DNA from: a virus
Lineage: Duplodnaviria > Caudoviricetes
Virus record (IMG/VR): IMGVR_UViG_3300042323_000377
Span: 1-28,072 of that record
Strand: one strand, 5' to 3'
Length of the DNA: 28,072 bases
Made by a program: the position numbers and the translations under genes. Below, one piece after another: positions 282 through 27,874 of this stretch. Below the pieces are notes generated by a model, which ran no database searches, was not told where the DNA came from, and saw only the letters and a program-made list of their open reading frames with translations. Numbering within the stretch: position 1 is the stretch's first letter; the number at the start of each line of letters is the position of its first letter.

Positions 282-333
282 ATGTCGATTTCTGGACGAA
301 TTATAGATATATGTCAAGCGATATGTCGAAAGG

Positions 334-406
334 TGGGGGCGGCTGGATTTGAACCAGCGTTTCTTCCGTTATGAGCAGAGTGTTCTTACCTTTGAACTAC
401 ACCCCC
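334..406 (-). tRNA. tRNA with CAT anticodon (elongator Met or Ile2)
   Basis: Acceptor GGGGGTG/CGCCCCC, anticodon loop CTCATAA, T-loop GGTTCAAATCC; G1-C72 pair argues against initiator; ends ACCT (no full CCA). Confidence 0.9.
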
Positions 407-411
407 GTAAG

Positions 412-495
412 TGGTGCTGAGGGCGGGACTTGAACCCGCAAGCCGTTGGGCAACTGATTTTAAGTCAGTCGTGTATACCATTCCACCACTTCAGC
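412..495 (-). tRNA. tRNA-Leu(TAA)
   Basis: ACTGA-CTTAAAA-TCAGT anticodon arm, long variable arm, GGTTCAAGTCC, encoded CCA. Confidence 0.95.
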
Positions 496-498
496 AAA

Positions 499-569
499 TA
501 GTCTTGCTAGGACTTGAACCTAGACAGAGAGAACCAAAATCTCCCGTGCTACCATTACACCACAAGACT
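499..569 (-). tRNA. tRNA-Gln(TTG)
   Basis: Acceptor AGTCTTG/CAAGACT, GGAGA-TTTTGGT-TCTCT anticodon arm, GGTTCAAGTCC. Confidence 0.92.
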
Positions 570-574
570 GAGAA

Positions 575-646
575 TCGACCCGCTAGGAATCGAACCTAGA
601 TAACCCGCTTAGAAGGCGGGTGTTCTATCCGTTGAACTACGGGTCG
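575..646 (-). tRNA. tRNA-Arg(TCT)
   Basis: Acceptor CGACCCG/CGGGTCG, CCCGC-CTTCTAA-GCGGG anticodon arm, GGTTCGATTCC. Confidence 0.95.
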
Positions 647-701
647 TAAAACGACCACCCCAGAGAAACCATCGTAGAGAGGGCGGGGTGGTACTAAAGC
701 G

Positions 702-773
702 AGCCTTGAGTCGGACTTGAACCGACAACCCTCAGTTTACAAAACTGATGCACTACCATTGTGCTATCAAGGC
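702..773 (-). tRNA. tRNA-Thr(TGT)
   Basis: Acceptor GCCTTGA/TCAAGGC, TCAGT-TTTGTAA-ACTGA anticodon arm, GGTTCAAGTCC. Confidence 0.95.
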
Positions 774-8941: not shown

Positions 8942-9046
8942 ATGGAACTACTCGCATTAGGCTTTTTCGCTCTGGTTGCCCTGCAAGGGATTTTACTCCT
9001 TGTATGCTCAGTCGGTGCTTGCCTACCTACCAAGAAGAAGAAATGA
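8942..9046 (+). CDS. 34-aa membrane peptide MELLALGFFALVALQGILLLVCSVGACLPTKKKK
   Basis: Hydrophobic helix plus basic tail; ATGA overlap with the next gene. Confidence 0.6.
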   Translation: MELLALGFFALVALQGILLLVCSVGACLPTKKKK

Positions 9047-9408
9047 GAATTAAAACCAAAGACATCCCCGTTCTGCGGGAAAAGATAATCGCTGAACAGC
9101 AGGGCAAGTGCTGGCTGTGCGATATTGATTTAAAATTAGTCGTGCCGTGTCTAGACCACAATCACGAAACGGGTCACATCCGTGGGGTGCTTTGTGGAAA
9201 CTGTAATGGCATTGAAGGTAAGATTACTAATCTTGCCAGACGAGCCAAGCGTGATAAAACAAAATACGATTTCGTTGCCAAGGTGCTGTCGTATTGGAAT
9301 TTCTTTTCTGCCTGTCAGCGTAATGAGATTCACCCTACGCACAAGACGACAGATGAGAAGAGATTGAGACGAAATAAAAAAGCGAGAGAGAGACGAAAGA
9401 AAGGTTGA
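9043..9408 (+). CDS. Recombination endonuclease VII-like protein (T4 gp49 family)
   Basis: QQGKCWLC, LDHNH, IRGVLCGNCN motifs. Confidence 0.9.
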   Translation: MRIKTKDIPVLREKIIAEQQGKCWLCDIDLKLVVPCLDHNHETGHIRGVLCGNCNGIEGKITNLARRAKRDKTKYDFVAKVLSYWNFFSACQRNEIHPTHKTTDEKRLRRNKKARERRKKG

Positions 9409-9433
9409 CAGGCGTATTACCATTTGTTTCCCT
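9405..9433 (+). promoter_or_regulatory. Putative promoter with GTATTAC operator
   Basis: TTGACA-ggc-GTATTAC-catttgtttc. Confidence 0.55.
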
Positions 9434-9440
9434 AGCGGAG

Positions 9441-10256
9441 ATGAATAACAACCTCGCTCAAGGCAAAGACCCCGCATTCTGTGCGGGAATGACTGAAGCC
9501 GACTATCGCAAAGCCCTCGGACTCTCGCAGTCCTCGCTGAAGATTTTTCACAAAAGTCCAGCCCACTACCTCGCCTCCACGGAGGAACAGGCTGAACCCA
9601 CGGACGCTATGATTCTGGGTTCTGTCTTTCACGCTATGATGCTCCAGCCCGATGAGGCGAAGAACCTGTACGCTGTTAAACTCAAGGTAGATGGTCGCTC
9701 CAAGGAAGGTAAAGCCTACAACGAGAATTTTGCCGTGGAGAACGCTGGCAAGTTCATCATCAATGTGGAGCAGGAAGCCCAACTGCTGGCTATGCAGAAG
9801 AGCATCCTCAGCCACCCCAAGGCTTCTCAACTGCTGGCTGACAGCGACTACAAGGAACTACCTGTCTTCGGCACTTACCCCACGCCCTATGGCGATGTCC
9901 GCTTGAAGGGTCTGATTGATGCTTACGATTCTAAACTTGGATTCATCAACGATATCAAAACCTGTGAATCAGCATCGCCAGAAGATTTTAAGCGAGCCAT
10001 CTGGGACAGGAGATACGATTTTCAAGATGTGCAATATTCTTGGTTGCTGGAAAATGCTGGCAAGCCTGTCAATCAGTTTAATTTCATCTGTGTGGAGAAG
10101 AAGAGTCCTTGGGCGGTGGCGGTATACAGCATTTCCGCTGAGTCCCTGCTGAAGTCTGCTGGACGCTGGGAAGACCTCGTCATCGAGTACGGGGCTTGTA
10201 CCTCCTCTGGAATCTGGAAGGCGTACTCTGACGACATCATCGAACTGTCTCTATGA
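9441..10256 (+). CDS. RecE/exonuclease VIII-like PD-(D/E)XK nuclease (DUF3799-like)
   Basis: LSQSSLK..SPAHY, GSVFH, LKGLID, DIKT, Y..Q...Y, FICVEK..P motifs. Confidence 0.88.
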   Translation: MNNNLAQGKDPAFCAGMTEADYRKALGLSQSSLKIFHKSPAHYLASTEEQAEPTDAMILGSVFHAMMLQPDEAKNLYAVKLKVDGRSKEGKAYNENFAVENAGKFIINVEQEAQLLAMQKSILSHPKASQLLADSDYKELPVFGTYPTPYGDVRLKGLIDAYDSKLGFINDIKTCESASPEDFKRAIWDRRYDFQDVQYSWLLENAGKPVNQFNFICVEKKSPWAVAVYSISAESLLKSAGRWEDLVIEYGACTSSGIWKAYSDDIIELSL

Positions 10257-10924
10257 GCGAACCGAAGTTCACGGGAGTCTGGATTCCTGCTGGGGTGTTC
10301 CAGCACACCACCATTAGCATCACCGCTAAGGTGGTCTACGGGGTCGTAGAAGCCCTTGACAATGACGATGGGTGCTTCGCATCCAATGCCTACCTGTCTC
10401 GCCACCTTGGGCTAGGGGAGAGGCAAGTCCGAAACATCCTACAGGAACTCGATGAGGCTAATCTGATTACCCGTGTCGAGGTCGATGGTCGCAGGGTCAT
10501 CCGTACTGTCGAGAAGACTGCGATTGTAAATGCTCTTGGGGAGGCAAAGAATTGCCTAGGGGGGAGGAAAAATATTGCCACGGGGGGTGGCAAAAAATTG
10601 CCTACATATAACAAAGAAGATAATAAAGGAGATAAAGATACAGTCAAACAGCAGATTTGGATTGCCCGTTTACCCTTTGGTTCTGAGGCTTTCCTTACGG
10701 CTTGGAAGTCTTGGGTAGCCTATCGCAAGGAGATGAAGAAGACCCTTACCGACTCCAGCGTACAGGCTCAATGCAAGGAGTTCGTCCTGTGGGGCGAAGC
10801 CAAGTCAATCGCCAGCATCGAGCAGTCCATCAAGCAGGGCTGGCAGGGTCTCTTTGAACCCAAGCAAGTATTTGGCAAAGGTAATACAAATGTCTTGACC
10901 GCCAGAGACCACGAAGCATTCTAA
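10253..10924 (+). CDS. Phage replication initiator (N-terminal winged HTH)
   Basis: GCFASNAYLSRHLGLGERQVRNILQEL; internal iterons; C-terminal W..W..YRK...IEQSI..GWQGLF; DnaC-like gene downstream. Confidence 0.85.
   Translation: MSEPKFTGVWIPAGVFQHTTISITAKVVYGVVEALDNDDGCFASNAYLSRHLGLGERQVRNILQELDEANLITRVEVDGRRVIRTVEKTAIVNALGEAKNCLGGRKNIATGGGKKLPTYNKEDNKGDKDTVKQQIWIARLPFGSEAFLTAWKSWVAYRKEMKKTLTDSSVQAQCKEFVLWGEAKSIASIEQSIKQGWQGLFEPKQVFGKGNTNVLTARDHEAF
10543..10645. other. Putative replication origin: three iterons plus A-rich tract
   Basis: GGCAAAGAATTGCC (10543), GGAAAAATATTGCC (10566), GGCAAAAAATTGCC (10589), exact 23-bp period with G-run spacers, then an A-rich stretch. Confidence 0.75.
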
Positions 10925-10931
10925 TAGCACT

Positions 10932-11168
10932 ATGAACCCAGAAGTAATCAATCGCCTTGGCTATGGGGCTTGGGCTGAGAACATCATCGTGAACTACATC
11001 GAGGACTACAGCGATGTAATCAAGTCCAGCAACGGCAACCACAGCATCGAGCGTGAACACTACACCATCAATGCTAGTTGGAATGACTGCTCGCTCTCGA
11101 TTACTGTCCGTGCCTATGTGGACGGGGACGGATGGCAGACCTTTGACCAGAACATCAAGATTAAATAA
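10932..11168 (+). CDS. Phage hypothetical protein (78 aa)
   Basis: Co-oriented packed ORF. Confidence 0.7.
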   Translation: MNPEVINRLGYGAWAENIIVNYIEDYSDVIKSSNGNHSIEREHYTINASWNDCSLSITVRAYVDGDGWQTFDQNIKIK

Positions 11169-11169
11169 T

Positions 11170-11325
11170 ATGAAACCCGTATCCCTAGAAGTGTCTATGA
11201 TGAAACGCATTGGCGAACTCAACAAGGAGAACGCTTTTCTTAGGTCAGAGATTGAGCGACTGAAGAACAATGTCGCTTACCTTGACAAGAAACTTGACGA
11301 AGAACTAGACAGGAAAAACAAATGA
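11170..11325 (+). CDS. Small coiled-coil protein (MKPVSLE..., 51 aa)
   Basis: ATG 1 nt after the previous stop; ATGA overlap with the next gene. Confidence 0.7.
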   Translation: MKPVSLEVSMMKRIGELNKENAFLRSEIERLKNNVAYLDKKLDEELDRKNK

Positions 11326-11996
11326 GCGAGATTGCCTGTCATTGCGGACGCAGGGGTGCGTTGTTCGCCAAGAACGATGGCTCTCTGAAGTTGGTTCGCT
11401 GGCATCATTGCCGTGAGCATCTGGACAAGGAGCGAGTTGCCTACGCTGGGCTGATTGACTCGACCATTCCCCCCGCCATCCCTCAGATTTTCTTAGATAC
11501 GGATGTGACCCGCCTCCACCCCAAGATTCAGACTGCCCTCGATTGGAAGCCCGAAGGGGATGTCTCTGGACTCCTCCTGCACGGCACAACAGGCGTAGGC
11601 AAGACCCGTGGCATCTGGGAAATCATCAAGCGTCTCTGGGCTGAGGAGACCAAGAAGGACAAGCAACTTAACTTTGAATTCCTCACGATGCGGAAACTAG
11701 AAACTGTAATCGAGAAGGGCTTTGAAGACCGCAAGCACGGCTCTGCCATCGACTACCTTATCTCCTGCCCCCTGCTCATCCTCGATGACTTCGGCAAGGA
11801 GCGTCTGACCCAGCGTATGGCTTCTGACATCTTCGCTATCGTGGACGAGCGTAGCACCAGCCGTAGGGCTACCATCATCAGCACGAACTTCAACGGCTCT
11901 ACCCTTCTGGAGCGATTCGACAATCGTGACAAAGAGACGGGCGTTGCCCTAATCCGAAGATTAAAGGATTATTACAGGGGCGTTGGAGTAGGTTAA
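11322..11996 (+). CDS. DnaC/IstB-like AAA+ ATPase (helicase loader)
   Basis: Walker A GTTGVGKT, Walker B LLILDDFGKE, TIISTN, N-terminal Cys/His. Confidence 0.9.
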   Translation: MSEIACHCGRRGALFAKNDGSLKLVRWHHCREHLDKERVAYAGLIDSTIPPAIPQIFLDTDVTRLHPKIQTALDWKPEGDVSGLLLHGTTGVGKTRGIWEIIKRLWAEETKKDKQLNFEFLTMRKLETVIEKGFEDRKHGSAIDYLISCPLLILDDFGKERLTQRMASDIFAIVDERSTSRRATIISTNFNGSTLLERFDNRDKETGVALIRRLKDYYRGVGVG

Positions 11997-12042
11997 CTTT
12001 CCTGCTTGCATCAGTAATACCATTTCTTTCTATCAGCAACCT

Positions 12043-12522
12043 ATGAAACGCCTATTCGCACTCCTGCTCAGTTACGCTTCTGTCGAAGCAAGGTCTATCA
12101 TCACGGAAGATTACTTAGACAAGGTCGCAATGATTGAATCCAACTTTAACTACGAAGCCGTTGGTGACAAGGGCAAGGCTATCGGAGCGTGGCAGATGCA
12201 CGAAGATAGTTGGCGTGAGTCCTGTCAGCGTCTTGCTCGAAAGGACTGTGCTGGCTTCAGTCCGTGGGATGACTTCTCCAAGAACCACAAAAAGTTCGCA
12301 ACCGACCCTCTGGTCAGCCGACTCGTAGCCAAAATGTACTTACAGATTCTTGAGACCCAGATGAATAACTCCAAGATTAAGGTCACGCCTATCTCCCTTT
12401 ATATGGCTTACAATATGGGCTTCCAAGGTGCATACAACAAAGACTTCAACTTCAAGTCTTTTTACCTTGACGGCAAACGCAGAGGCATCCTTGCCCGTGC
12501 CAACCAAATCCTTTCCCGATGA
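12043..12522 (+). CDS. Lysozyme-superfamily/lytic transglycosylase-like protein with signal peptide
   Basis: IES catalytic Glu, AVGDKGKAIGAWQM, AYNMG; N-terminus MKRLFALLLSYASVEA. Confidence 0.8.
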   Translation: MKRLFALLLSYASVEARSIITEDYLDKVAMIESNFNYEAVGDKGKAIGAWQMHEDSWRESCQRLARKDCAGFSPWDDFSKNHKKFATDPLVSRLVAKMYLQILETQMNNSKIKVTPISLYMAYNMGFQGAYNKDFNFKSFYLDGKRRGILARANQILSR

Positions 12523-12695
12523 AGAAAACTAACACCAAGAAACGAACCCGTAACCACGAACTTATGCTCACACTCCGTGTGTCTAAGTCGCTGTTCAACT
12601 TACTCAACAAAGTGTCAAGCAGAATCTCAATGACTCGCTCAGATTATGTGAGAACTATTTTGCAGAGAGATGTTGACACACACCCCCTCTCGTAA
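12519..12695 (+). CDS. Ribbon-helix-helix (CopG/Arc-like) regulator, 58 aa
   Basis: Manual translation MKKTNTKKRTRNHELMLTLRVSKSLFNLLNKVSSRISMTRSDYVRTILQRDVDTHPLS: alternating strand LTLRV, helix, TRSDYVR helix; ATGA overlap; below the ORF-track cutoff. Confidence 0.8.
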   Translation: MKKTNTKKRTRNHELMLTLRVSKSLFNLLNKVSSRISMTRSDYVRTILQRDVDTHPLS

Positions 12696-12707
12696 TACTA
12701 CCTAACT

Positions 12708-13511
12708 ATGTTCACCGAATCACTCTTCACCTACACACCAAATAAAATGCACGACAACAACCCCGAACAACAAGTCAGTCTCATCAAGGCTCTCGTAGCC
12801 TTTGTGTCTGAAGCCCAAGATGTCCACGCTGACAGCGACAATCCATTTCATAAGTCACGCTATGCCAGTCTCCAAGCCCACCTCATCGCCCTTAAGCCTC
12901 TCGCTAAGAAGCACGGACTCGCCATCATCCAGATGCCCATCGGTGACATCGATGCTGTCGGTATCCGTAACATCATCATCCACGAAGACGGAGGTATGCT
13001 TTCGTGCAACGCTCTCGTCCCTGCTGAGAAGGGTATGTCTGGTCAGCAAGCGGGTAGCCTGTATTCTTATGTCCGTAGATACAGCCTTGCTTCCATTGCT
13101 GGAATTGCAACTGAGGATGACGATGCGGAATCCGACCGCCTCGCTAAGACTTCTACTAAGTCTGCTCCTAAGAAGGAGTATGTTAAACTCGAAACGAAGC
13201 CGACTGCTTCTGGAACAAAGTTCATTCCTAACCCCACAGCCAAAGCCCCTGCTGGCGGTGAAGCCGTTGCTCCTTTCGGTGACCTCAAGGGAACTCCCCT
13301 GTCCCAACTCCCGCTGAAGTCTGCTGACCGAAGCGTCAAGTTCGGTGACCTCAATTACTTCGCTAATGTCTGGAAACCCAAGCCCTTCGGTGACAACACC
13401 GAAATCAGCCCCCGTGACCTCCGTGTCAAGGCTGAGGCTGAACGCCTCTGGGCTATCGCCAACGGAGACATCGAGCCTCCGACTGTAACCCAAGACGAAG
13501 TACCCTTCTAA
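12708..13511 (+). CDS. ERF-family single-strand annealing protein (start may be 12747)
   Basis: NPFHKSRYASL and GSLYSYVRRYSLASIAGIATEDDD motifs; acidic tail DEVPF. Confidence 0.92.
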   Translation: MFTESLFTYTPNKMHDNNPEQQVSLIKALVAFVSEAQDVHADSDNPFHKSRYASLQAHLIALKPLAKKHGLAIIQMPIGDIDAVGIRNIIIHEDGGMLSCNALVPAEKGMSGQQAGSLYSYVRRYSLASIAGIATEDDDAESDRLAKTSTKSAPKKEYVKLETKPTASGTKFIPNPTAKAPAGGEAVAPFGDLKGTPLSQLPLKSADRSVKFGDLNYFANVWKPKPFGDNTEISPRDLRVKAEAERLWAIANGDIEPPTVTQDEVPF

Positions 13512-16642: not shown

Positions 16643-17291
16643 GTTTCTTGATAAGCACGGCAAGCAGGGATATGCAAACTATCCCGACTGAGCCTCCTGC
16701 TATCCAAGTGAACCATTGGCTGTCGAATATCCAGAGGGAAGCCATAGCCAGAGAACCACCACCCATAACAATAGCCCCAGACTTCTTGAACGGAGTGAAC
16801 GCAACCACAAGAAGCCCAGTCACGAACAGCCCTAACCCAGCCGTACTGAACTGCCATAGCACCTTCTGCTTGAACTCAGCGTCAGCCCTAGAGTGAGCCT
16901 CAGCGAGTTCATAATCCTTTTGTTCTACCATTGCGTACAGGGCTGTGGTCTCATCCTCTACCTTGGATGCCTCTTTCTTATCCTTCTCTACCGCCTTGAA
17001 GTCGTTTTGTTTTATAATCCTAGTGTACTCCTCTACCTTAGCAACTGAGGGCTTGGCAACCCCAGAGAGGCGTGTCACTTGGGCTTCGACAAGTCCTCGT
17101 ACATTGCCTTTATCGAGGCTAGGAACGACAGCAGTAAGGGCAGAAGCGGAATCAGAGACGATATCTTCGACCCTAGTGATGTACTTGTCCTTCTCTTGGT
17201 TCTTCGTTTCAACGGGGGCAGGGGGTAAGGGGGTAGGCTTAGGGGCGGTAGAGCAACCAACAAGGAGCAGGGCTAGTAAAATGAATCTCAT
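16572..17291 (-). CDS. Lipoprotein with coiled coil and C-terminal TM helices (spanin-like)
   Basis: Lipobox LLVG-C13, Pro-rich linker, coiled coil, about 3 hydrophobic segments. Confidence 0.7.
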   Translation of the reverse strand: MRFILLALLLVGCSTAPKPTPLPPAPVETKNQEKDKYITRVEDIVSDSASALTAVVPSLDKGNVRGLVEAQVTRLSGVAKPSVAKVEEYTRIIKQNDFKAVEKDKKEASKVEDETTALYAMVEQKDYELAEAHSRADAEFKQKVLWQFSTAGLGLFVTGLLVVAFTPFKKSGAIVMGGGSLAMASLWIFDSQWFTWIAGGSVGIVCISLLAVLIKKLTSRTPLESHPQKQESADQHPHQ

Positions 17292-18400
17292 CTACGCATT
17301 TCCATCATAGAACCTGTGCTTGTTTCCCTATTTAAAAACTCTGGGACATAGCCTCCTATAAATGCTTTTGCAGGCTCAGTATTTCCAGCAAGCAAATTAT
17401 AAACAGTAGCACTAATAGGACTACGAATCTGATATTCTGGGTCAGCAACTTGGGCTTTCATTTCTCCCCACGCTTGTTGAACAGAGTTTCCTTTATTGGA
17501 ACTAGAGTCTTCATATAGACCAGTTATCTTTCCCATAAAATCCCAAGCAGGGCGTGTTCCATAGATGTCTGAAGCCCCGTGATTTCTATCATAATAATTT
17601 TCTCTCGTAGCCCCGTAACCCATCATGCCCATACTTGCCAGACCTCCTACTGCACCAAGGGCTGGGGCTGTGGCAGGAGGAAGTTTAATATTATATAATC
17701 CAGAAAGAAGACTTGCAGGAGTTCTTGCATTTACAACTTGAGGACTTTGTGCCATTGCACGAACAGCGGTAGCGGTAGGAGGACTGACGGCTGTTTCTGT
17801 AGTCGCTACCTGTCCTTGTTGAATAAACTGAGGAGTGTAAGGTGTTTTAGCAACGGGAACAGGAGGGGCAGGAGGTGTTGGAAGCGGCTTATCCGAAGCA
17901 AAGGTACGCAACCTATTCATTGCTACTTTATATGCTTCTGGGTCTGTAGGTTTTCTGTCTGGAGTTAAATCAGTAAACTTTTGTCCCGAATTAATAAAGT
18001 CTTTTGTTATGTTGCTTCCCTTGTTATTGACCATAGGCAACGCTTCAACGAACTCATCAGCGTTAGCGTTTCCAAAGACTTCATCAAGAGCCATCCCAAC
18101 TCGTTCTAACTGTTTATTTCCATAGAATAAATCATCTGCTTTCTGAACACCTTTATTAATCCATCCGTCTTTTGAGCCGATGCCAGCCGCAGGATACCAT
18201 CTGTTAGGAGGAACATGAGATTTTCCTCCTGCACCAGAACTAAAATAAAAAGGCATCTTTTCTCCATTAACATTGGCAACAACCATAGGTCTGTCGGCAT
18301 CGCCCGTGAGATTAATTATGTACGAAGTTTTGTCTTTACCGACAGGGATTGCGTCTAGGTCGAATCCGAATTCACGAAGTCTAGCAAGTTGTTCTTCCAT
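17288..18400 (-). CDS. Hypothetical protein (370 aa), globular N-domain, Pro/Thr/Ala linker, C-domain
   Basis: Long ORF coupled to both neighbours; PFYFSSGAGGK...WYP motif. Confidence 0.8.
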   Translation of the reverse strand: MEEQLARLREFGFDLDAIPVGKDKTSYIINLTGDADRPMVVANVNGEKMPFYFSSGAGGKSHVPPNRWYPAAGIGSKDGWINKGVQKADDLFYGNKQLERVGMALDEVFGNANADEFVEALPMVNNKGSNITKDFINSGQKFTDLTPDRKPTDPEAYKVAMNRLRTFASDKPLPTPPAPPVPVAKTPYTPQFIQQGQVATTETAVSPPTATAVRAMAQSPQVVNARTPASLLSGLYNIKLPPATAPALGAVGGLASMGMMGYGATRENYYDRNHGASDIYGTRPAWDFMGKITGLYEDSSSNKGNSVQQAWGEMKAQVADPEYQIRSPISATVYNLLAGNTEPAKAFIGGYVPEFLNRETSTGSMMEMRR

Positions 18401-18401
18401 A

Positions 18402-18707
18402 TTATTTAGTCTGTTTAATAAATTTACGCTTCAGCCACTCAAAAATATCTGGGGCTAACGCACCAGCAGAGGAGTAGATGATGCCCTTGTACATAGCGTC
18501 CAGAGGGGCGTGGTTGATGGCGAAGTAAATCAGAGTACCAACGATAGCACCCGCCAGAGCCTTGCGTACCCAGATGATGGCTTGCCACTTCTCCTCAGTT
18601 ATGATGAGCCTAGCGACAGCACCTAACGCTCCTAGGACAGCAACTATCCAGCCACCCTTCTTGAAGTCTTCGGCTGTTTCTAGAATGCTAGGGTCTACAG
18701 GACTCAT
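18402..18707 (-). CDS. Holin-like membrane protein (101 aa)
   Basis: About 3 TM segments, basic C-terminus, near the spanin-like gene. Confidence 0.6.
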   Translation of the reverse strand: MSPVDPSILETAEDFKKGGWIVAVLGALGAVARLIITEEKWQAIIWVRKALAGAIVGTLIYFAINHAPLDAMYKGIIYSSAGALAPDIFEWLKRKFIKQTK

Positions 18708-21700
18708 TGCTTAGGCTCGTCCCTTTGGACTCTCCGCTTGGCTTGCTCTAGGTCGTTGTAGATGCCGACCATAGCCTTGTAGGGGTTGTAGACCTTGAAC
18801 TTATCGCCCTGCACCATGATGACATAGCCGACAGCGTTCTTGACCACAGAGCCAAGCGAGGTGCGTTCAGATTGCCAGTCACGCCAGCCTTCAGCGGGCT
18901 GATAATGTCTATCAGAGAATATCTTGCTCCAAGAGTGAACCCAAGGCTCATAGCCTTCCATTGTCTCATAAGAGCCATCCTGTTTCTGAATATCGATTAA
19001 AGGCTTTTTGAGTTTGTCGAAGTTTTCCTTTGTGGGCGGGAAATACTGACCCCTATCTGCATCAATTAACTTAGACTCTCCAAAGCCAAAGGTATTGACT
19101 TGAGCGTACATAGGAAGTGCTAAGTCGTTTTCAATTCTCTGAAGGAAGTCTTCAGCCCCTAAGAACCTCGCCCGTTCAGCCATTTCAGAGTAAAGAAGAT
19201 TAGAGTATCCCTTGCCCCTGTACTGTTCCCATACACGAACCGCAGGGTCAGAAAGCAACCACTTACCTCCGCTACCCTTCTTAACTTCGTAATCTATTCT
19301 GCCGATAAGTTTGTTTCCTTCCTTTAACTCAATAGAGCGTCTTCCATAATCATCGGTTCTCTTATCCCAGTTCTTCATGCTGAGTTTCAAACCTTTCGTA
19401 AGGATAGGGTTCTCCTCAGCATATCTGCCAATGAAGCCATTAGTCCATTGACGGCTATCTGTATCATAGGTTCTGTTGCCTTCACCCATCTCGTACTGAT
19501 TTGTGCTGACCTTTTTTGTGCTGATGGTCTTCTTCTTACCAGAGAGTCTGATGGGTTCGCCCTGCTCGCCTTCCGCTGGCATGAAAGATGTTCTGTCTTT
19601 ACCAGCCTCGTTGTTCTTGAACGCCTTGTTGACTTCACGCTTAAGAGCAAGAACAGCCCTTTCTGGATTTTCTAAATTCACATCATGTAAAGGATGGTTT
19701 ATTGCCTTTCCGTTTACTCTTATGTCTACGCCTAGCGTATGCTTTTCTTTGTTTTTAACGCTATTTTTAAGGATATCTAAGATAGCCTCATACTGTTTGT
19801 TTGTAGGAACAGAACCTATGTCTAAATAAGTGCGTCCGTCATCTGTGCCATAATCATTGTGGTCTATGCGGATAGCACCAGCCTCTTGCATTTTGCCAAT
19901 CTTGTCTTCTTCCCAGCCATACTCTTCCTTCATTTTTCTCTTAACCTCTGGAAGCATTACGGCTTCTCTATGGTCTAAGCCTCTTGAATTCTTGAAGTCA
20001 TCAAACTTTGTGGTGGGAATGTATTTGTCGTTTACTCTCTTGAACCCAGAACTTTGTGAGCGTCCAGAGAAGTCGAGCATTCTTGCGTCTGGCAATATAT
20101 AGCCAGCCTCATACGGACTGTTTGTAAGTCCAAACTTCTTAATGTTAAGTTCAAACAGTTTTCTAGATGCTTCTGGAAGAGCATCCCAAGTAGACTTCAT
20201 TCCCAGTTCCCTTGTCTTTTCCCAAGACTCAGAAGGCATATACCAAGCCTTTTCCTTCAAGTAAGAAGTGACATCTGTCTGCGTATCGCCATACCTATCC
20301 CTTCTTGTTCTTCCAATAAGAGTGTCATCTGGCTCTCCAATCCTAGTGTTTTCTTGGTCAATGATTCTTTTGCGAATCTTCTGAGGTCTTCCAGATTCAT
20401 CGACAATCATTCCGCTGAATTCTTTTACGCCAAGGGAGCGAAGACGCTCAACCATTTCAGAGTAAAGAAGATTCCCGTATCCTTCGCCTTCCCATCTAGG
20501 ATTTACTTTTACATATTCAACAGACGCATCAGTTCCATTGACTTCAACATTTATATATCCTACCTTAACTTCATTTGCAACTTCATCCTTTGGTTTAATA
20601 GTAAGCCTATATGTCTCTTCTCCAAATCTTCCTTTTTCAGTATCCTTGGTGAATATAATCTTTTTATATTTTATTGCTTTAGGATTTTCAGAAGCATAGC
20701 GACCAATAAATTTACCAGACATCTGCTCTGGCGTGTAAGTACGACCACCCTCAGCATCGCCCTCCGCTGGCATGAAGTTGGGACGATTTTCTCTGCCCGT
20801 ATCTTCTTCTGAAACTCTGAATTGATTAAGTCTTCCTTCTTCCTTGATTGGTGTCTGAACCCAAGCGTATTTAATGCCAAGGTCTTCATAGGCTTGAAGC
20901 CTGTGTCTTCCATTGGAAACACGAACTTGATTAACAGCACCTTGTCCTTCAATAAAAGTCTTTTCTGGGAATACCGACACGACTGGGGCTTCAGCCATCT
21001 CTCGGTTATTTTTTCTTTCCCAAGGTCTTTCTTGAATCCACTTAGTAGCATTAGCAAGGCTATTAGGCTTTTGATTCTTTACATCTCTTACTGTATTAGA
21101 AGGATTAGTTCTTTGGAATTCGTCATTAAACTTCTTAACATCAATAAGGACAAACTTATTTCCACTCCAAGGCTTTTGATGAGCCTCTAATGGAATTTCC
21201 GCTGGCTGATATGCAGTATCTCTATGCTCTCTTTCTCCTTCTGTATTGTAGCGTCTTCCATCCTTGTCAGAAATCTTACGCATCTGACCAGTCGCTCGCA
21301 TGAACGCATTGTATAAACCTTTTCTTGCGTCTCTAATGTCTTTCAGTTTTGCAAGGTATGTATATTGGTCGATGTTTTGTGCCTCTTGAACGGCTTGCTT
21401 TAATGTGATTTCTTTGTTCTGAAATCTGTCAACAATAGCACCACCCTTGCTTCCAAGTTTTAAGATAGCCTCAACAACATCATCGTTGCTTGCTTTTGTG
21501 AAATTCTCTATGTTGTTAAAGACATAATCTAATTCTGGAGTCATCATCTCTTGATGAGACTTGCCCGTCTTTAATCCGTATAGATATTCAGTTAACAGTT
21601 TATAAGCCTTGTTGCTGTTTGGTTCAAAATCAAAACCGCCTTTTTCACCCTCCGAAGGCATCATGTGCGTCTGTATCTTGCCGTCTAGGAAGTCTTGCTT

Positions 21701-24700
21701 GATGCGGTCATTGAGGACAAAGGTCATGCCTCTGTCGATAGCCTCAGCGGAAATACCAGAGTCTGTAGTAGACATTGAGCCGATTTCGCCACGGATACCA
21801 TTCTCACGAAGTTTATTAATTCTGTTGTAAGCATCCTTTTCGGCAGACTTTATCATTGCAACTTCACCGATAAGCGTTCTCAGTTTGTTATCGTTAAGAT
21901 TTTTAGCCTCATTTTGGATTTTTACACCAACGAATTCGTCAGACTCATGCACGGGCATTGCCATTAACTCAGCAAGTTTGTTGATGGTCGCAGGGTCTTC
22001 ACTACCCTTGACCTGTTCAAAGTGTTCAAGTACTGCCTTATTAGCATCGTGCAACTTGTTGGTAATCTCAGCCATCTGACCCTTGGCGGTATCAATGGTA
22101 GCGTCAGCCAACTTGTTAGTCTGCTTCATCTCAATCCCGTACTTGCGAAGCCAAGCACCCCAGATTTCTGGGATTAACTTGCCGTAGAGTCCCTGTCTGG
22201 CATCGCCTTTCATGTGCGAGACAGTAGGGCTGTCATCGGGGTGCGTTAGCGTAATCCTATCTAAGCCGTCACGGATAGCCTGTCTGATGATTCCCTTGAG
22301 TCCTGTGAGCGTCCAGTCCTTAGCGGCAGTAAGCGGCAAAGGAGTAGGCTCTTTTTGACTTAAACTTAATTCATGCAATTGAATCAACGACTCATTGTCT
22401 TGAATAGATTCAAGCATAATGTCTGGATTGTCTAAAGTATAATTAGTTATGTGTCCTTCATCTATAAGACTTTGAATTCCTTCTGTTCGGTAAAATTTCT
22501 GCCGTTCGACTTCAAACTTTTTTATTGTATTAAATTGATTTAACAATTCATCGCTAAGTCGTAACTTTTTCCAAACTTTAAAATGTTTGTCAAAAACTGA
22601 TTCTGTTTCTGCTTCAAGTCTATTTAAGAAATCGCTAAAACTTGTTGCTGTACCTATCATGGTAAACACATGGTCTAACCCTTCCTGTAAAACTTTCCTC
22701 GCATCTTGTCTTGACATAGCGGCATCATAACCTTGAGACGGGAATATTTCTTTTAACAATAATGTTATTTCAGAATTTAATTTTTCGCTATTCCATAACC
22801 CTGCTTTTATGTACGCAGTTTTTTGAGTCTCAAAACCTTCTCCATTGCTGTTTTGTACATAAATTCCTTCTTCTCTTGCTTTGTTATAAAGTGTTTTTTG
22901 AGTTCTTACATTTCTTCTAACTATAAATTCTCTATCTGGAGTAAGTCTTCCAGATACTTTTCTTTTATCCGTATTATTAGCCTGTACTTCTTCGATGAAC
23001 AGGTGTCTGTTGCCGTCAGCGTCAATACGCTCCGTGGTTCGGAAGTGAACAATAGTATCTTCTCCGTAGTGACCACGGATGCCGTGAGCGTACTCTGGAT
23101 TGATTCTAATTGCCGTCTGCTTGTAGTTATCCTTAGCACCGCCAAGGGTGAACCTAGAGGTGTCCATTCCACTTCTTTCCTTAGCACCCTCTTCAATAGT
23201 TACCTTGATTTCCTTGGACTTAGCGAAGTCTAGGATTTCGGTCATGTCTAACTTAGGCTGAGTAACGCCCTGTGCCATGTCAATCCGTGTGCCATCTTCA
23301 AGGAATCTAGGCGTAGTGGTCTTCTGAATCTTGGACTTCAACAAGTCAACAAGACCAATCTCCGTGGCTTCTTGGAACATTCTGCTACCCTGCGAGCCGT
23401 ACACGACTAACTTCTTGAGAAGACCTTGGGCTGTGAGGTTAGGGTAGTCTTGGAAAATTTGGGCAAGTCTGGGGTGCAGGGCAGACTTGATTTCCATCGG
23501 ATACATTGCGTCATATTCGTGATGTGATAAATTTGTTAACTTATCTAACAAATAAGAAACTTTTAAATCTTTTGCATAATGAGGTATTCCTATGTCAATA
23601 TCACCTAAAGAAGAAACATCTGGTTTAATTTTAACTTGTTCTAAAATAGAACTTACATTTTCATTGCGTAATGCCTTTATTAAACCTTCTTTTTTAACTA
23701 CTTCTAAAGCATCTTTAGATGGTCTTGAGTAATAATTGCTCGCAGACTCTGCTTGATTCTCTTTTGAGTTTATATCGTTTATTTGTTTTTCTAATGCTTC
23801 TATTACACTTTGTTCAATTTTATTATCATCTAAAATCTTTTGAACACGCTTATCTTTGTATCCAACTCTTGACGGAGGAATTTCAGTCGGAGGCACAGCG
23901 GTGTCTTTACCCTCAACGCTCTTGTCGAAGGATTCATTGAAGTGTTTTTGAGCCGCACGACCAGCGTCAGCGATTGTATCGAATTGACCAAGCGACTTGC
24001 CCTCTGGGTCGAACACCTTGAACTTTTCGCCAGCCTGTTTGCTGATGTTATAGCCCGTAGCGTGACGGATTATCTTGCCACCAGAGGGAGTAGTCTCCTG
24101 CCTCATCTCATCTGGCATGAAGTTGCGGGTGAGGTCTAGGTGGGCGTTGTTGTGGTTGTAGTCCACACGCTCCCTGCCAGCGGTACGCATAGCCACGATG
24201 CCGTCATTGCTGAAGGTCGTAACGCTGTGTCGGATGCCGACAGGAATCTCAGCGATGGGCTTGTTGATGTACGGGAGGTCAGAACCCTTGTGGAATCCAA
24301 GCATCTGGTGCAGGGCATCTCTACGCTGACCGCCTAAGCCGTCACCCCTGTCAAGAAGACGGAAGGAGGGCTTGCGGTTAGGGTCTCCAGACGGAAGGGA
24401 GGCGTTGCTGAGGTAGGCGTAGAAGTCAGCCTCCATGCTTGTTCTGTCTCCGTTCCAGAGGTCACGGACTTGAGGGTCACGCCAGACCTCGTTGCCTCTA
24501 GCCTCGATGACTCTGAGGTCAAGGGTGTCAAAGTTAGCGAAGGTCGTACCATCGGCTTTGACCTTGAAGTTCACATCAAGAAGTACAGCCCGTCTGTTCT
24601 TGAACGGCACAGCCGCACCATAGACACGCTCGTTGCCGTCACCAATGTGGGCAGAGTAACCAAGGTAGCCGAACTCGACCACATTAGAACCCTTGCCTTC

Positions 24701-27700
24701 AAGGATGTTATAGGCGGCTGTAAGTCTGTCGAACCACGCTCTCTGGAGGTAACCTGTACCCACAAGGGCGTTCATCTGAGCCGTGTTGGGCTTGCCAGAC
24801 CAGTTGCCGTCACCATCCCTACGCATACCGCCCCTGTGGTCAGCATCAGAAAGGGAGTCTAGAACCTTGAACATCTCCTTGCCCTGTCGGATTTCTTCGG
24901 CTGTGTATCTGCGGAGTTTAGGCTTCTTTAAGTTGCCAGCCTTGTCGATGGTCTCAAAGCCCTGTCCACGCAGACCATGCGTCTGGATGAACTGCTTACG
25001 GGCATCGGGGGAGAGGTTGCTGATGTCGAACTTGCCACCCTTGTTGATGTTAGACTGCATCCGAATCATGTCCTGCATCAAGAGGTCTAGGGCTGTTACC
25101 TTGGCTCTCTTGCCGTCTTTGCCAAATCCTCTGGACAGGGCATATCCCTCGATGTTGTCGAAATTGACGGACGGGTTGTTCTTGCCAATCTTAGCCTTCC
25201 AGAAGTCGAGGAACGACTCCTTGGAGGTCTCAAAGACGGCTCTGAGTCCGCTGTATTCGCCACCTCTGAACAGGAAGTCCACGGGCTTGTCCATCACGAA
25301 CTTGGCAAAATAGTAAGCACCGAACTCCTCAACTAGATGCTCAAGCGGTGTCTGGGTAGTGTCAGCGACACGATTAGGGTCGTTACGCTTCTTGTATTCC
25401 TCGATAGAACCCTTGAGTTCATCAATCTTGCGTTTACGGAATTCTTCGCTTTGGTTTCTATGGACGCTGTTGATATAGCCTTCCATGAACTTCTGGAGTT
25501 GGGTCGGGTCAACGACAGCCTTCTCAAGCATCTTGCCAGTCTGAGGGTCAAATGTGCCGACAAGTTTCTGGATGAGTCTGTCGGAGTAGTCCTTAGCGAA
25601 CACAGAGTCTCTCATCACGGAGTGGAAGAGTTCGTGGGGCATCGACTCACGATTGCCCTTAGCCATGAACTTATCTAGGTTGATGTAGATTTCAGTCTGA
25701 CCAGTAGAGTTCCTACGCTTAGTCCAACCAGCGGAAGCGTCAAACGATTGAAGCGTCTCTTCGACATCCATGTTGCGAGACTTTCTGATTGTGCCATCCT
25801 TGTCGATGTATCCGTCCGCTTGGAGTTTCTCCTTAAGCATCTGACCTCTGCGGGTCAGTTTCTTGTCGGAGCGTGTCTCAGCCTTGAGGGTCTCAGCAAT
25901 CTTACCAGAGACGAGATTAGCGTTCTTCTGGTTAAGGGTGTTAATCATCTCAGCCAATCTTTCGGCATAGGCGAGGTCACCGAAGTGAGCGTTTACCTGT
26001 CTGCCCTTGAGGGACTTGATGAAATCGGGGTTGCTGTTTTCCTTAATCTGCTTGAGCAGGACAGCCTTGGCGTTGTCATCCAGACGCTCCCAGACGGGCT
26101 TCAGTTTCTTGTATCTGGCTTCGGTTGTGATAGCCTTCTCAAAGCCAGCAGGGTCTCCAGCGAAGTTGCCTCCGTTGTCTCTGAGGATGCCGAGGACATC
26201 AGCGATGGTTCTTCTGTCTCCGATTTCGGGGAAGATTCTGGACTTCTCTCTGAGTTTGCCCGTGCTGGGGTCAATTCCTTGGCTAGTTAACGCTTCAGCG
26301 TAACCTTTCTCGTTAAACGCCTTGATGACCGCATCGGGGTTCACGACATCCAGACCAGCGATGATACCATCAATCTGGGCTTGGAATCGTCTATCTCCAG
26401 TAGCCTCAGCCGCAATAGCCATAGCCTCAAGAGCCACATGGTTTTCATTGCCAGCGTCCTTGAGTCCTTCGATGACCAACTTACGCTGGATGGCAATCTG
26501 CTCCATCTTCGTGTTGCCTGTGATGTCAGAGGTAAGCCTGCCAGCACCAGCACCGACAGCACCGAGTGCCATGCCAGAGCCGATACCGCCAGCCATGCCT
26601 TCTTCACCGCCAGCAAGATAACCTAGACCGCCACCGATAGCCGCACCTTGAAAAGCACCAGAGGTAATTTCATCGGCATAGGCGAAGAACGGGTCAACAG
26701 CCTCAATAATCTTAAGCAGTCCTTGGGCGTGTTTAGAGAGAACGATGCCTTGTTTCTTGGTGTCTCTAAGAGCCTGTCCAGCATAGCCAAGAACGCCACG
26801 ACCTGTGTTCTTCTGCTTTTGCATCTGCTCACCAAACATACTGATAGCCTCACCAACGCCACGGGCGGTAGTAGAGCCGACCATCGCACCAGCGACATCC
26901 CCGACAATAGGAAGGGGAATTGTAGCACCTGTCATAGCCGCAGTCGCAGAAGTCCATCCGTACATCTGTGCGGTTGTCTTGACCTCAGCGGCAGAGATAC
27001 CAGATACAGTCTCGAAAGCCTTGGCACTACGCTCTAAGCCATAATCAATCGTATTTCTGACGGCAGTACCCATGAACTCAATGGGAGCACCAACGCCCCA
27101 CTTGAGAACACCACCCATAATGCCACGCTTGATAGCCGCAGTACGGGCAGAAGCCATAGCCAACTTCTCGCCCATGCCAATCATCGTAGCACCCTTAGCC
27201 GCAATCCCACCGAACGGGATAAACAGGGTAGGGTCAGCGATGTAGGACATCACCTGTGTCATCTCTGGGTTGATGACATCTTTGTCCATGACAAGGGTAT
27301 CTTGACCAGTCATCAGACGCATCGAATGCAGATTGAAGGCTTGAGCCTCCATGAACTGCTGGTACTCAGCCGCCTCGTCATCGCCATTGGCTAACAAGGC
27401 GTTCTTCATTCGGAAGAATACGCTAGTAGGGTCGGCAGACTGAGCCGCCATTCCATAGAGGTTTCTTGTGCCTTGGGCAAACGCCTCGATTACAGAGGGC
27501 GTAAGTTTCTTCATCGAGTCTACGGGCTTGTCATAGATAGACCCAGCCGCCTTAAAAATCTCGTCAAATACTGTGCTAGCCGCCTCGCCAATCGTGCCGA
27601 TGACATCTGTTTCCTTAGATTTTTGATGAGCCTTGAACAGTCTGTATTGGTCTAATGTCATGTCCATCAGTTCGCCATTGGCGTTCTTCTGAGCCATTGC

Positions 27701-27874
27701 TCTTGCTACTTCCTCACCAGTAGGAGGGGCTGTAATATACTTTAACGCCTCTTCCCTTTCGTCCGCAGGAAGGCTATCTATGATGCTTTCGATGCTGGGA
27801 GGTGCATCAGATGCAGTTCCAGATTGCCCTCCAAGGGAAATATACTGCTTGGGGGATTCGTAAAGTTCAGCCAT
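18704..27874 (-). CDS. Giant (3056 aa) polyvalent, probably virion-internal/ejected protein: zincin HExxH, ParB-like and two GNAT modules
   Basis: Gly/Ala-rich hydrophobic N-region; HELFH (aa 747-751) plus EEFGAYY (aa 849); NGRHR; EGEGYG/RGKGYS..LLYSEM; repeated linker. Confidence 0.9.
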   Translation of the reverse strand: MAELYESPKQYISLGGQSGTASDAPPSIESIIDSLPADEREEALKYITAPPTGEEVARAMAQKNANGELMDMTLDQYRLFKAHQKSKETDVIGTIGEAASTVFDEIFKAAGSIYDKPVDSMKKLTPSVIEAFAQGTRNLYGMAAQSADPTSVFFRMKNALLANGDDEAAEYQQFMEAQAFNLHSMRLMTGQDTLVMDKDVINPEMTQVMSYIADPTLFIPFGGIAAKGATMIGMGEKLAMASARTAAIKRGIMGGVLKWGVGAPIEFMGTAVRNTIDYGLERSAKAFETVSGISAAEVKTTAQMYGWTSATAAMTGATIPLPIVGDVAGAMVGSTTARGVGEAISMFGEQMQKQKNTGRGVLGYAGQALRDTKKQGIVLSKHAQGLLKIIEAVDPFFAYADEITSGAFQGAAIGGGLGYLAGGEEGMAGGIGSGMALGAVGAGAGRLTSDITGNTKMEQIAIQRKLVIEGLKDAGNENHVALEAMAIAAEATGDRRFQAQIDGIIAGLDVVNPDAVIKAFNEKGYAEALTSQGIDPSTGKLREKSRIFPEIGDRRTIADVLGILRDNGGNFAGDPAGFEKAITTEARYKKLKPVWERLDDNAKAVLLKQIKENSNPDFIKSLKGRQVNAHFGDLAYAERLAEMINTLNQKNANLVSGKIAETLKAETRSDKKLTRRGQMLKEKLQADGYIDKDGTIRKSRNMDVEETLQSFDASAGWTKRRNSTGQTEIYINLDKFMAKGNRESMPHELFHSVMRDSVFAKDYSDRLIQKLVGTFDPQTGKMLEKAVVDPTQLQKFMEGYINSVHRNQSEEFRKRKIDELKGSIEEYKKRNDPNRVADTTQTPLEHLVEEFGAYYFAKFVMDKPVDFLFRGGEYSGLRAVFETSKESFLDFWKAKIGKNNPSVNFDNIEGYALSRGFGKDGKRAKVTALDLLMQDMIRMQSNINKGGKFDISNLSPDARKQFIQTHGLRGQGFETIDKAGNLKKPKLRRYTAEEIRQGKEMFKVLDSLSDADHRGGMRRDGDGNWSGKPNTAQMNALVGTGYLQRAWFDRLTAAYNILEGKGSNVVEFGYLGYSAHIGDGNERVYGAAVPFKNRRAVLLDVNFKVKADGTTFANFDTLDLRVIEARGNEVWRDPQVRDLWNGDRTSMEADFYAYLSNASLPSGDPNRKPSFRLLDRGDGLGGQRRDALHQMLGFHKGSDLPYINKPIAEIPVGIRHSVTTFSNDGIVAMRTAGRERVDYNHNNAHLDLTRNFMPDEMRQETTPSGGKIIRHATGYNISKQAGEKFKVFDPEGKSLGQFDTIADAGRAAQKHFNESFDKSVEGKDTAVPPTEIPPSRVGYKDKRVQKILDDNKIEQSVIEALEKQINDINSKENQAESASNYYSRPSKDALEVVKKEGLIKALRNENVSSILEQVKIKPDVSSLGDIDIGIPHYAKDLKVSYLLDKLTNLSHHEYDAMYPMEIKSALHPRLAQIFQDYPNLTAQGLLKKLVVYGSQGSRMFQEATEIGLVDLLKSKIQKTTTPRFLEDGTRIDMAQGVTQPKLDMTEILDFAKSKEIKVTIEEGAKERSGMDTSRFTLGGAKDNYKQTAIRINPEYAHGIRGHYGEDTIVHFRTTERIDADGNRHLFIEEVQANNTDKRKVSGRLTPDREFIVRRNVRTQKTLYNKAREEGIYVQNSNGEGFETQKTAYIKAGLWNSEKLNSEITLLLKEIFPSQGYDAAMSRQDARKVLQEGLDHVFTMIGTATSFSDFLNRLEAETESVFDKHFKVWKKLRLSDELLNQFNTIKKFEVERQKFYRTEGIQSLIDEGHITNYTLDNPDIMLESIQDNESLIQLHELSLSQKEPTPLPLTAAKDWTLTGLKGIIRQAIRDGLDRITLTHPDDSPTVSHMKGDARQGLYGKLIPEIWGAWLRKYGIEMKQTNKLADATIDTAKGQMAEITNKLHDANKAVLEHFEQVKGSEDPATINKLAELMAMPVHESDEFVGVKIQNEAKNLNDNKLRTLIGEVAMIKSAEKDAYNRINKLRENGIRGEIGSMSTTDSGISAEAIDRGMTFVLNDRIKQDFLDGKIQTHMMPSEGEKGGFDFEPNSNKAYKLLTEYLYGLKTGKSHQEMMTPELDYVFNNIENFTKASNDDVVEAILKLGSKGGAIVDRFQNKEITLKQAVQEAQNIDQYTYLAKLKDIRDARKGLYNAFMRATGQMRKISDKDGRRYNTEGEREHRDTAYQPAEIPLEAHQKPWSGNKFVLIDVKKFNDEFQRTNPSNTVRDVKNQKPNSLANATKWIQERPWERKNNREMAEAPVVSVFPEKTFIEGQGAVNQVRVSNGRHRLQAYEDLGIKYAWVQTPIKEEGRLNQFRVSEEDTGRENRPNFMPAEGDAEGGRTYTPEQMSGKFIGRYASENPKAIKYKKIIFTKDTEKGRFGEETYRLTIKPKDEVANEVKVGYINVEVNGTDASVEYVKVNPRWEGEGYGNLLYSEMVERLRSLGVKEFSGMIVDESGRPQKIRKRIIDQENTRIGEPDDTLIGRTRRDRYGDTQTDVTSYLKEKAWYMPSESWEKTRELGMKSTWDALPEASRKLFELNIKKFGLTNSPYEAGYILPDARMLDFSGRSQSSGFKRVNDKYIPTTKFDDFKNSRGLDHREAVMLPEVKRKMKEEYGWEEDKIGKMQEAGAIRIDHNDYGTDDGRTYLDIGSVPTNKQYEAILDILKNSVKNKEKHTLGVDIRVNGKAINHPLHDVNLENPERAVLALKREVNKAFKNNEAGKDRTSFMPAEGEQGEPIRLSGKKKTISTKKVSTNQYEMGEGNRTYDTDSRQWTNGFIGRYAEENPILTKGLKLSMKNWDKRTDDYGRRSIELKEGNKLIGRIDYEVKKGSGGKWLLSDPAVRVWEQYRGKGYSNLLYSEMAERARFLGAEDFLQRIENDLALPMYAQVNTFGFGESKLIDADRGQYFPPTKENFDKLKKPLIDIQKQDGSYETMEGYEPWVHSWSKIFSDRHYQPAEGWRDWQSERTSLGSVVKNAVGYVIMVQGDKFKVYNPYKAMVGIYNDLEQAKRRVQRDEPKQ

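Follow-up and report, generated by a model that had tools for sequence, protein, structure and literature searches.

Tags at the module borders of a giant phage polyvalent protein covary with the predicted zincin embedded in it

We analysed a 28,072-nucleotide stretch of phage DNA, here called the window (positions 1 to 28,072 of IMG/VR record IMGVR_UViG_3300042323_000377), and in particular its gene for a giant polyvalent protein of 3056 amino acids (aa). A five-letter tag is repeated at the domain borders of this protein, and its covariation with a residue of the metallopeptidase (MPTase) predicted in the same chain indicates that the repeated motif is matched to the embedded protease. We consider it probable that the protein's own predicted zincin recognises and cuts the tags, freeing separate effectors. 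As the initial annotation had proposed, the protein falls by its sequence features into the polyvalent class with metallopeptidases: like other members it is encoded by a phage with a terminase-portal genome, joins many unrelated domains per chain in variable architecture, has a zincin-like MPTase signature (HExxH with a downstream Glu) and carries GNAT/ART-PolyVal cargo. For this class Iyer, Burroughs, Anand, de Souza and Aravind proposed in 2017 that the MPTase acts in autoproteolytic release, which they likened to the processing of RNA-virus polyproteins; the accessible main text of their paper names no recognition sequence or cleavage linker (PMC5512222). In contrast to that account, here a tag is defined; it serves as the joint for exchange and shows covariation with a residue of the protease.

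The initial annotation had reported seven copies of the motif [FYM][MQ]P[ASD]E, and all seven are present, with the aromatic position at aa 1252, 2071, 2222, 2367, 2545, 2764 and 2991. Only 0.012 copies were expected, and 0/20,000 shuffles exceeded two; this pattern was set post hoc, and a looser one recovers the identical seven and none besides. The remaining five reading frames of the window contain no tag copy. The copies do lie at module borders, delimiting units of 819, 151, 145, 178, 219, 227 and 66 aa, and the layout of the protein is as follows.

18704..27874, minus strand: giant polyvalent protein, 3056 aa (open reading frame, ORF, call).
25805..27874, minus strand: N-terminal region, aa 1-690, conserved and containing stretches rich in Gly/Ala that are weakly hydrophobic (hydropathy peaks 1.05-1.33).
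25025..25807, minus strand: predicted zincin metallopeptidase domain, aa ~690-950, with two strands, the HExxH helix, an inserted helical part and the glutamate helix.
25730..25732, minus strand: residue 715, an Ala in this protein, immediately followed by invariant G716 and strand 717-721.
25622..25636, minus strand: HELFH, aa 747-751, zinc ligands and predicted catalytic E748; invariant in 120/120.
25325..25330, minus strand: E849-E850 in the second helix, from alignment and model.
24146..24772, minus strand: conserved domain, aa ~1035-1243, a predicted Sm/SH3-type barrel resembling WYL domains (a lead only).
24107..24121, minus strand: tag 1, FMPDE, aa 1252, kept in place across the family and lying in a low-confidence model loop.
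23930..24106, minus strand: small domain after tag 1, short strands and helix, homologous to the C-terminal 66-aa unit.
21665..23929, minus strand: variable 755-aa region with domains without assignment, mosaic among relatives.
21212..21664, minus strand: tag 2, MMPSE (21650-21664), and a 151-aa cassette, family of 9, function unknown.
20777..21211, minus strand: tag 3, YQPAE (21197-21211), and a 145-aa cassette with a GRHR motif.
20243..20776, minus strand: tag 4, FMPAE (20762-20776), and a 178-aa GNAT cassette.
19586..20242, minus strand: tag 5, YMPSE (20228-20242), and a 219-aa cassette, family of 5, function unknown.
18905..19585, minus strand: tag 6, FMPAE (19571-19585), and a 227-aa GNAT cassette.
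18707..18904, minus strand: tag 7, YQPAE (18890-18904), and the conserved terminal 66-aa domain closing the array, family of 107.

To place the protein within its family we used the best 120 of 129 matches, the window's own protein replacing its truncated copy P0001. The conserved core is aa 1-1315, downstream of which the cassettes vary, and the tag is the joint at which exchangeable cassettes swap between distant phages. Across the 120 proteins we distinguished 677 modules in 73 families; homologous cassettes align tag to tag, with tags at both ends of each cassette, and the proteins L001 and L003 share 96-97% identity across aa 1-1251 yet differ in their cassettes and in cassette order. With the tag masked, we counted alignment ends within -10 to +20 residues of a tag. 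At 60% identity or more, 4819/8143 ends fell near a tag (null 7-8%), at 80% or more 1855/2298 did so (81% versus a null of 7.8%), and within the cassette zone 1855/1968 (94% versus 13%), although these alignment pairs are not independent, reflecting common events; collapsed per protein and with the tag unmasked, 36% of breakpoints lie at the tag versus 6%. Two contigs from other sequencing runs show the process more directly. In one, a joint from 20768 to 21657 leaves out precisely two cassettes, the 888 nt running from tag 4 to tag 2; in the other, tag 7 is interrupted by an insertion of 1085 letters. Compared in these ways, homologues and other-run contigs bear out the module exchange at the motif that the initial annotation had anticipated.

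It is hardly credible that the tag belongs to the modules themselves as a structural end-piece. The aromatic letter does tend to accompany the upstream module, as an end-piece would, but 557 junctions combine 97 upstream with 71 downstream flank families in 256 combinations, the tag flanks are poor in hydrophobic residues, and position 2 follows the host core and not the module (see below). We regard as highly improbable the related idea that the tag is a mere translated trace of short DNA homology used in cassette exchange, with no function in the protein. DNA crossovers are indeed centred on the Pro-x codons of the tag (26 and 18 pairs, 21 genes) and map within its 15 bp, and the codons CCA and GCG are enriched (48/84 and 13/32). 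This enrichment counts against a purely protein-level account, and we conclude that DNA-level homogenisation contributes, as expected from repeated crossing over. However, third codon positions vary, all four Pro codons are used in tags (CCA 58, CCT 17, CCC 17 and CCG 8 of 100), and only 4/207 within-gene tag pairs are identical over 15 nt. Furthermore, M (ATG) and Q (CAG) alternate in the tags while K, the one-step intermediate, is rare in M/Q hosts, and the tag covaries with a distant residue of the protein. The tag is thus kept by selection as a protein sequence.

The proposal that the linker DNA acts as a swapping joint holds in part. A 14-mer is shared by tag copies 4 and 6, and crossovers occur within the tags; on the other hand, the joint is not a fixed site, and swaps within the 819-aa unit are independent of the tag. 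Their breakpoints inside the variable part of that unit (aa 1316-2070), a second mosaic zone, lie far from tags. A fixed DNA recombination site was considered and rejected, given the variation at third codon positions and crossovers that merely fall in short homology.

The motif as first defined describes this protein, but the form found across the family is wider, Φ-[QMKS]-[PV]-x-[ED], and relatives can be sorted into Q/M, K, S and K-V dialects in which the tag copies of one protein change together. Where tag 1 has K (17 proteins), so do 72/72 internal tags, compared with 9/483 in the 100 M/Q proteins, as counted with a pattern that allowed only M, Q and K at position 2. In five distant proteins whose tag 1 has K-V, all the other tags are K-V as well, and among distant relatives generally the S and K-V dialects are uniform per protein, some of which are without internal copies. 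These differences do not travel with the modules: 21/47 K-host modules with a full-length M/Q-host match are 81-97% identical to it, with host cores at 40-50%. Tag position 2 thus follows the host core rather than the module. DNA identity (0.77 vs 0.50; 26 and 18 pairs) puts position 2 mostly on the upstream-module side of the crossover, and therefore the K in moved cassettes must have been re-made or selected.

Residue 715 is acidic (E/D) in 17/17 K proteins versus 0/103 others, in three lineages. Since columns 666, 813 and 1267 of this discovery set also separate the K hosts, with 754 and 1052 nearly doing so, we tested residue 715 on new distant proteins. The fresh set comprised 59 of them, of which 57 exceed 900 aa, 42 have an alignable HExxH-Glu core and 37 have both positions aligned. 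Among these 37, 14 combine an acidic residue with K, three are acidic without K, three have K without the acid and 17 have neither; Residue 715 is thus acidic in 14/17 proteins with K and in 3/20 without it (p 5.6e-5), and it came out ahead of all others among 625 columns. A 55-tip tree was built with the tested columns left out; on it 49/55 tips agree, a value that 0/19,612 traits simulated with about as many changes reached, and 715 ranks first among 16,250 column-class pairs. Across 157 proteins there are six exceptions. A clade that includes P0147 and loci L048-L054 has acidic 715 with S tags, from which we conclude that the acid permits K but does not force it.

Residue 715 lies in what is predicted to be the first part of a zincin core. 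The initial annotation had identified HELFH at aa 747-751 with a distal EE at aa 849, and both are there: H747, E748, H751, E849 and E850 are invariant in 120/120 homologues, and the predicted catalytic E748 and the ligands are also kept in the distant HExxH set. E849 is replaced by S or D in two distant relatives, and hence E850 is more likely to be the third zinc ligand than E849. An AlphaFold model of aa 680-1320 (36 alignment rows; confidence scores pLDDT 73, pTM 0.60) has strands at 717-721 and 727-731, the HExxH helix at 744-756 and the Glu helix at 843-861, and places tag 1 in a low-pLDDT loop between the barrel domain and a small strand-and-helix domain. The best match to a solved zincin is weak: Certhrax (4fxq_A, 60-239), with Z 5.4, root-mean-square deviation (rmsd) 5.5 and 141 residues aligned, obtained by VIA with the 641-residue model and covering aa 700-950. 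Thermolysin, SprT, ArdC and N4 were absent from the 50 VIA matches listed, an absence that is uninformative for so large a model. Foldseek returned no match of the core model to the PDB at E 0.001 or better, a profile search of PDB sequences with the core gave one weak, unrelated match only, and no MPTase family of Pfam matched the giant protein; the BFVD fold matches of the core are LPD and ART-PolyVal proteins from uncultured phages, and its ESM Atlas leads were under 0.9. Among the best 7991 candidates, one fragment was the only mid-length form of the core. Co-folding of aa 680-969 with Zn and a 32-aa tag-4 peptide scored 0.00, but the controls did not fold either, so that this is no evidence either way.

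In some distant relatives (P0165, P0168, P0169, P0171-P0174, P0178, P0180, P0181), HExxH is replaced by EExxH, which may represent either a variant metal site or an inactive lineage.

If the zincin cuts the tags, as we think probable, the linker would lie as an extended strand along the upper-rim strand 715-721, with a Lys at tag position 2 facing acidic residue 715 at the start of that strand. Residue 715 sits 32 residues before HExxH, at the start of a predicted strand equivalent to the upper rim. In aureolysin, the corresponding strand starts 30 residues before HExxH, the substrate is bound as an antiparallel strand, and the strand touches P1', which is hydrophobic (accessible part of PMC9002140). 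By analogy, the scissile bond here would precede the aromatic residue, with the aromatic as P1' and Q/M/K as P2', although this register is inferred. The cut products would then begin with F, Y, W or L. These are bacterial N-degron residues, and such a start could limit the lifetime of the products or argue for a different bond.

One way to view the single chain is as a device to load and eject many enzymes together. Because the fusion makes sense as a device for loading and delivery, cutting would come after ejection, freeing GNAT, ART and unassigned modules to act on the host early in infection; the anti-host action of this cargo is suggested by analogy with the polyvalent class. Incoming cassettes in the wrong dialect would remain fused and be selected against, which would explain the concerted change of the tags.

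An unlikely alternative is that the zincin-like groove binds the tags uncut, as a clamp that orders, threads or silences the modules, or with tag 1 autoinhibitory and the others decoys. Binding without cutting would account for the covariation equally well, N4 virion RNA polymerase (vRNAP) and ArdC are reported to stay whole, and the nine EExxH relatives examined still show, around aa 1000-1035, a stretch of the F[IV]P[VL]E type that resembles the tag. However, a pure clamp should tolerate loss of E748, and the invariance of this residue together with all the ligands therefore speaks against it, as does the presence of tags at both ends of every cassette, which is expected of cut sites. We think it very unlikely that the tags are instead cut by another enzyme, be it a phage prohead protease with X-X-E specificity or a host protease. 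The tag does end in [ASTD]-E, which resembles the A-X-E after which SPN3US gp245 is described as cutting in the accessible part of PMC10052503, and different hosts could impose different dialects. Yet the conserved letters are the aromatic and the Pro and not an A-X-E pattern, cassettes cross dialect groups, and the dialect tracks residue 715 of the same chain; in addition, the terminase-to-tail part of the complete genome, where many ORFs are without a family match, showed no recognisable protease gene (a PHROGs scan of 15 ORFs for a prohead protease recognised none, and 11/15 gave no named family).

Several further observations weigh against self-cutting by the zincin. Covariation shows contact at best, not catalysis, and it is imperfect: K tags occur without acidic 715 in P0156 (with five internal copies), P0159 and P0177, acidic 715 occurs with S tags in P0140, P0147, P0155 and L048-L054, and a sign test on independent pairs, while pointing in the same direction, does not reach significance (median p 0.125; 5.4 pairs agree, 0.5 are opposite and 3.1 are without a difference). 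The additional separating columns of the discovery set and the weak zincin fold match (Z 5.4) count here too. Self-cleavage is a prediction from sequence, and it is the gene order, together with what is known of the family, that suggests the virion location, the timing and the anti-host activity. As far as the accessible parts of the sources go, N4 vRNAP, which has an HExxH, is packaged unprocessed, and ArdC and TraC1 are transferred full length (PMC5512222, PMC13434306); the ArdC mutant E229A retains function, with no substrate found (PMC7213743); and neither the N4 structure paper nor the ArdC paper, in those parts, shows self-cleavage (PMC13434306, PMC7213743). A literature search that covered few subscription papers found no description of such a tag and no demonstration that an MPTase cleaves itself.

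Like N4 vRNAP, the protein is giant, is the third of the presumed ejection proteins and has an N-terminal hydrophobic part, an HExxH domain and a beads-on-a-string build; in contrast, no polymerase is recognised here, and N4 is without a described cassette array with a repeated tag. R388 ArdC likewise sets a polyvalent-class metallopeptidase beside another domain (nucleic-acid-binding in ArdC), but it is a two-domain plasmid protein that, according to the accessible part of the report, is not cut and whose protease activity is dispensable in the assays reported (PMC7213743). With the thermolysin-family gluzincins the core shares HExxH, a predicted Glu helix and a predicted upper-rim strand about 30 residues before HExxH, and the hydrophobic P1' preference of aureolysin serves as the model for the cut proposed here. 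That family, however, consists of secreted broad-specificity enzymes, whereas here the Glu helix lies about 100 residues after HExxH, and no sequence or fold-search match to it was obtained. Prohead proteolysis in T4, phiKZ and SPN3US (gp245, A-X-E) similarly employs short Glu-ending motifs that are repeated, there in internal head proteins, but a separate protease gene trims N-terminal propeptides in those phages, while here the tag separates cargo modules.

The cargo itself is partly recognisable. The initial annotation had assigned the 178- and 227-aa units to GNAT, and this is supported by PF00583, weakly for each unit alone (E 0.0012 and 0.002, below the curated cut-off) and at E 1.3e-6 over the whole protein. 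The two units are paralogues (35%, E 4e-14), and the GNAT family with the 178-aa unit is the largest module family (154/677 modules). The ParB-like assignment of the 145-aa unit found no confirmation: there was no Pfam family even at E 3 and no useful PDB sequence match, which leaves a resemblance of its GRHR motif to ParB. Nearly identical copies of this cassette occur in distant hosts. PHROGs and Pfam gave no name to the non-GNAT cassettes, and ESM Atlas gave no lead for the 219-aa cassette; ART-PolyVal (PF18760) was found in 5/16 relatives scanned. A single-sequence model of aa 2051-3056 (pLDDT 38) was unusable.

The small domain after tag 1 matches the C-terminal unit (35% over 52 aa, E 1e-5), so that the array of variable modules is opened (23930-24106) and closed (18707-18889) by copies of one small domain, possibly a packaging or ejection handle. 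In distant relatives the terminal copy is preceded by a Pro-rich linker, not a tag. The barrel at aa 1035-1243 resembles the WYL regulators PafBC, DriD, BrxR and CapW (VIA; Z 7.0-6.0, rmsd 2.4-4.0, 78-98 residues aligned), values too low to exclude a merely common arrangement, and had no Pfam match. On the model, it is possible that this barrel is a nucleic-acid sensor adjoining the protease, and a DNA trigger of the protease through it would be speculation. We would propose only tentatively, and with some doubt, the more complete picture in which effector modules pass among distant phages, the 15-bp joint is both crossover point and cut-site code, lineages re-letter their joints to suit each zincin, whose dialect a single upper-rim residue determines, and the WYL-like barrel, on meeting the ejected DNA, switches the protease on, so that the modules come free inside the host and nowhere else.

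The window covers 28 kb of a phage genome record (G001) that is complete at 43,185 bp and has direct terminal repeats; the sequence of this lake phage is present in lake-water sequencing runs, six of which are possible sources of it. The giant gene is the last of three ejection-position genes (335, 809 and 3056 aa) downstream of the tail genes. In the remaining gene order, terminase-like, portal-like and scaffold-like genes precede those for the major capsid protein, adaptor and tail, followed by ORFs of 148, 335, 809 and 3056 aa. The major capsid gene matches phrog_1328 (PHROGs, E 9e-52) and there are tail matches too, whereas terminase and portal were assigned by sequence and position, without family matches. 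Podophages have their ejection proteins in this place after the tail genes. The gene order thus makes it likely that the 3056-aa protein travels in the virion and leaves it together with the DNA, and aa 1-690, for which no family match was found, is likely to be its channel or membrane part. One LMPTE occurs in the 809-aa upstream ejection-position protein (L002 3568-5997, plus strand), with similar stretches in the L001 and L010 counterparts and none in most relatives; this is probably chance.

A search of 50,697 phage records (INPHARED) gave no match to a cultured relative. The sole GTDB match, L024, is a relative (33%) on a 25.6-kb phage-like contig within an uncultured Acidimicrobiaceae metagenome-assembled genome, at best a weak hint of the host, which we do not adopt as a host call. 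Other features of the window are as follows.

332-773, minus strand: five tRNA genes (Met, Leu, Gln, Arg, Thr).
9004-13511, plus strand: replication and recombination genes, namely endonuclease VII, exonuclease VIII-like, O-like initiator, DnaC-like loader, SLT transglycosylase and Erf.
17288-18400, minus strand: 370-aa ORF.

The Erf annealing protein and the exonuclease could drive cassette exchange via short homology. The N-terminus of the 370-aa ORF weakly matches positions 1707-1774 of the 1957-position phrog_32390 (E 0.001), and the ORF is perhaps a free form of a giant-protein domain; it has no match to the modules of the giant-protein family, and elsewhere in the window none of the 677 modules occurs as a free-standing copy.

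What this locus adds to the 2017 self-cleavage proposal is the covariation of protease and tag. That proposal, made without a substrate or site, can now be tied to a site and to a predicted scissile bond, and also to the prediction that one residue sets the specificity, namely acidic 715 for Lys tags. The same arrangement would explain how phages bring along a reshuffled arsenal within a single ejected chain. Divided at the tag, the proteins yield 677 modules in 73 families, most of them without annotation, which are candidate early anti-host or anti-defence enzymes. If the cutting is true, the zincins of these proteins would form a new family of proteases that are sequence-specific and vary naturally in their specificity.

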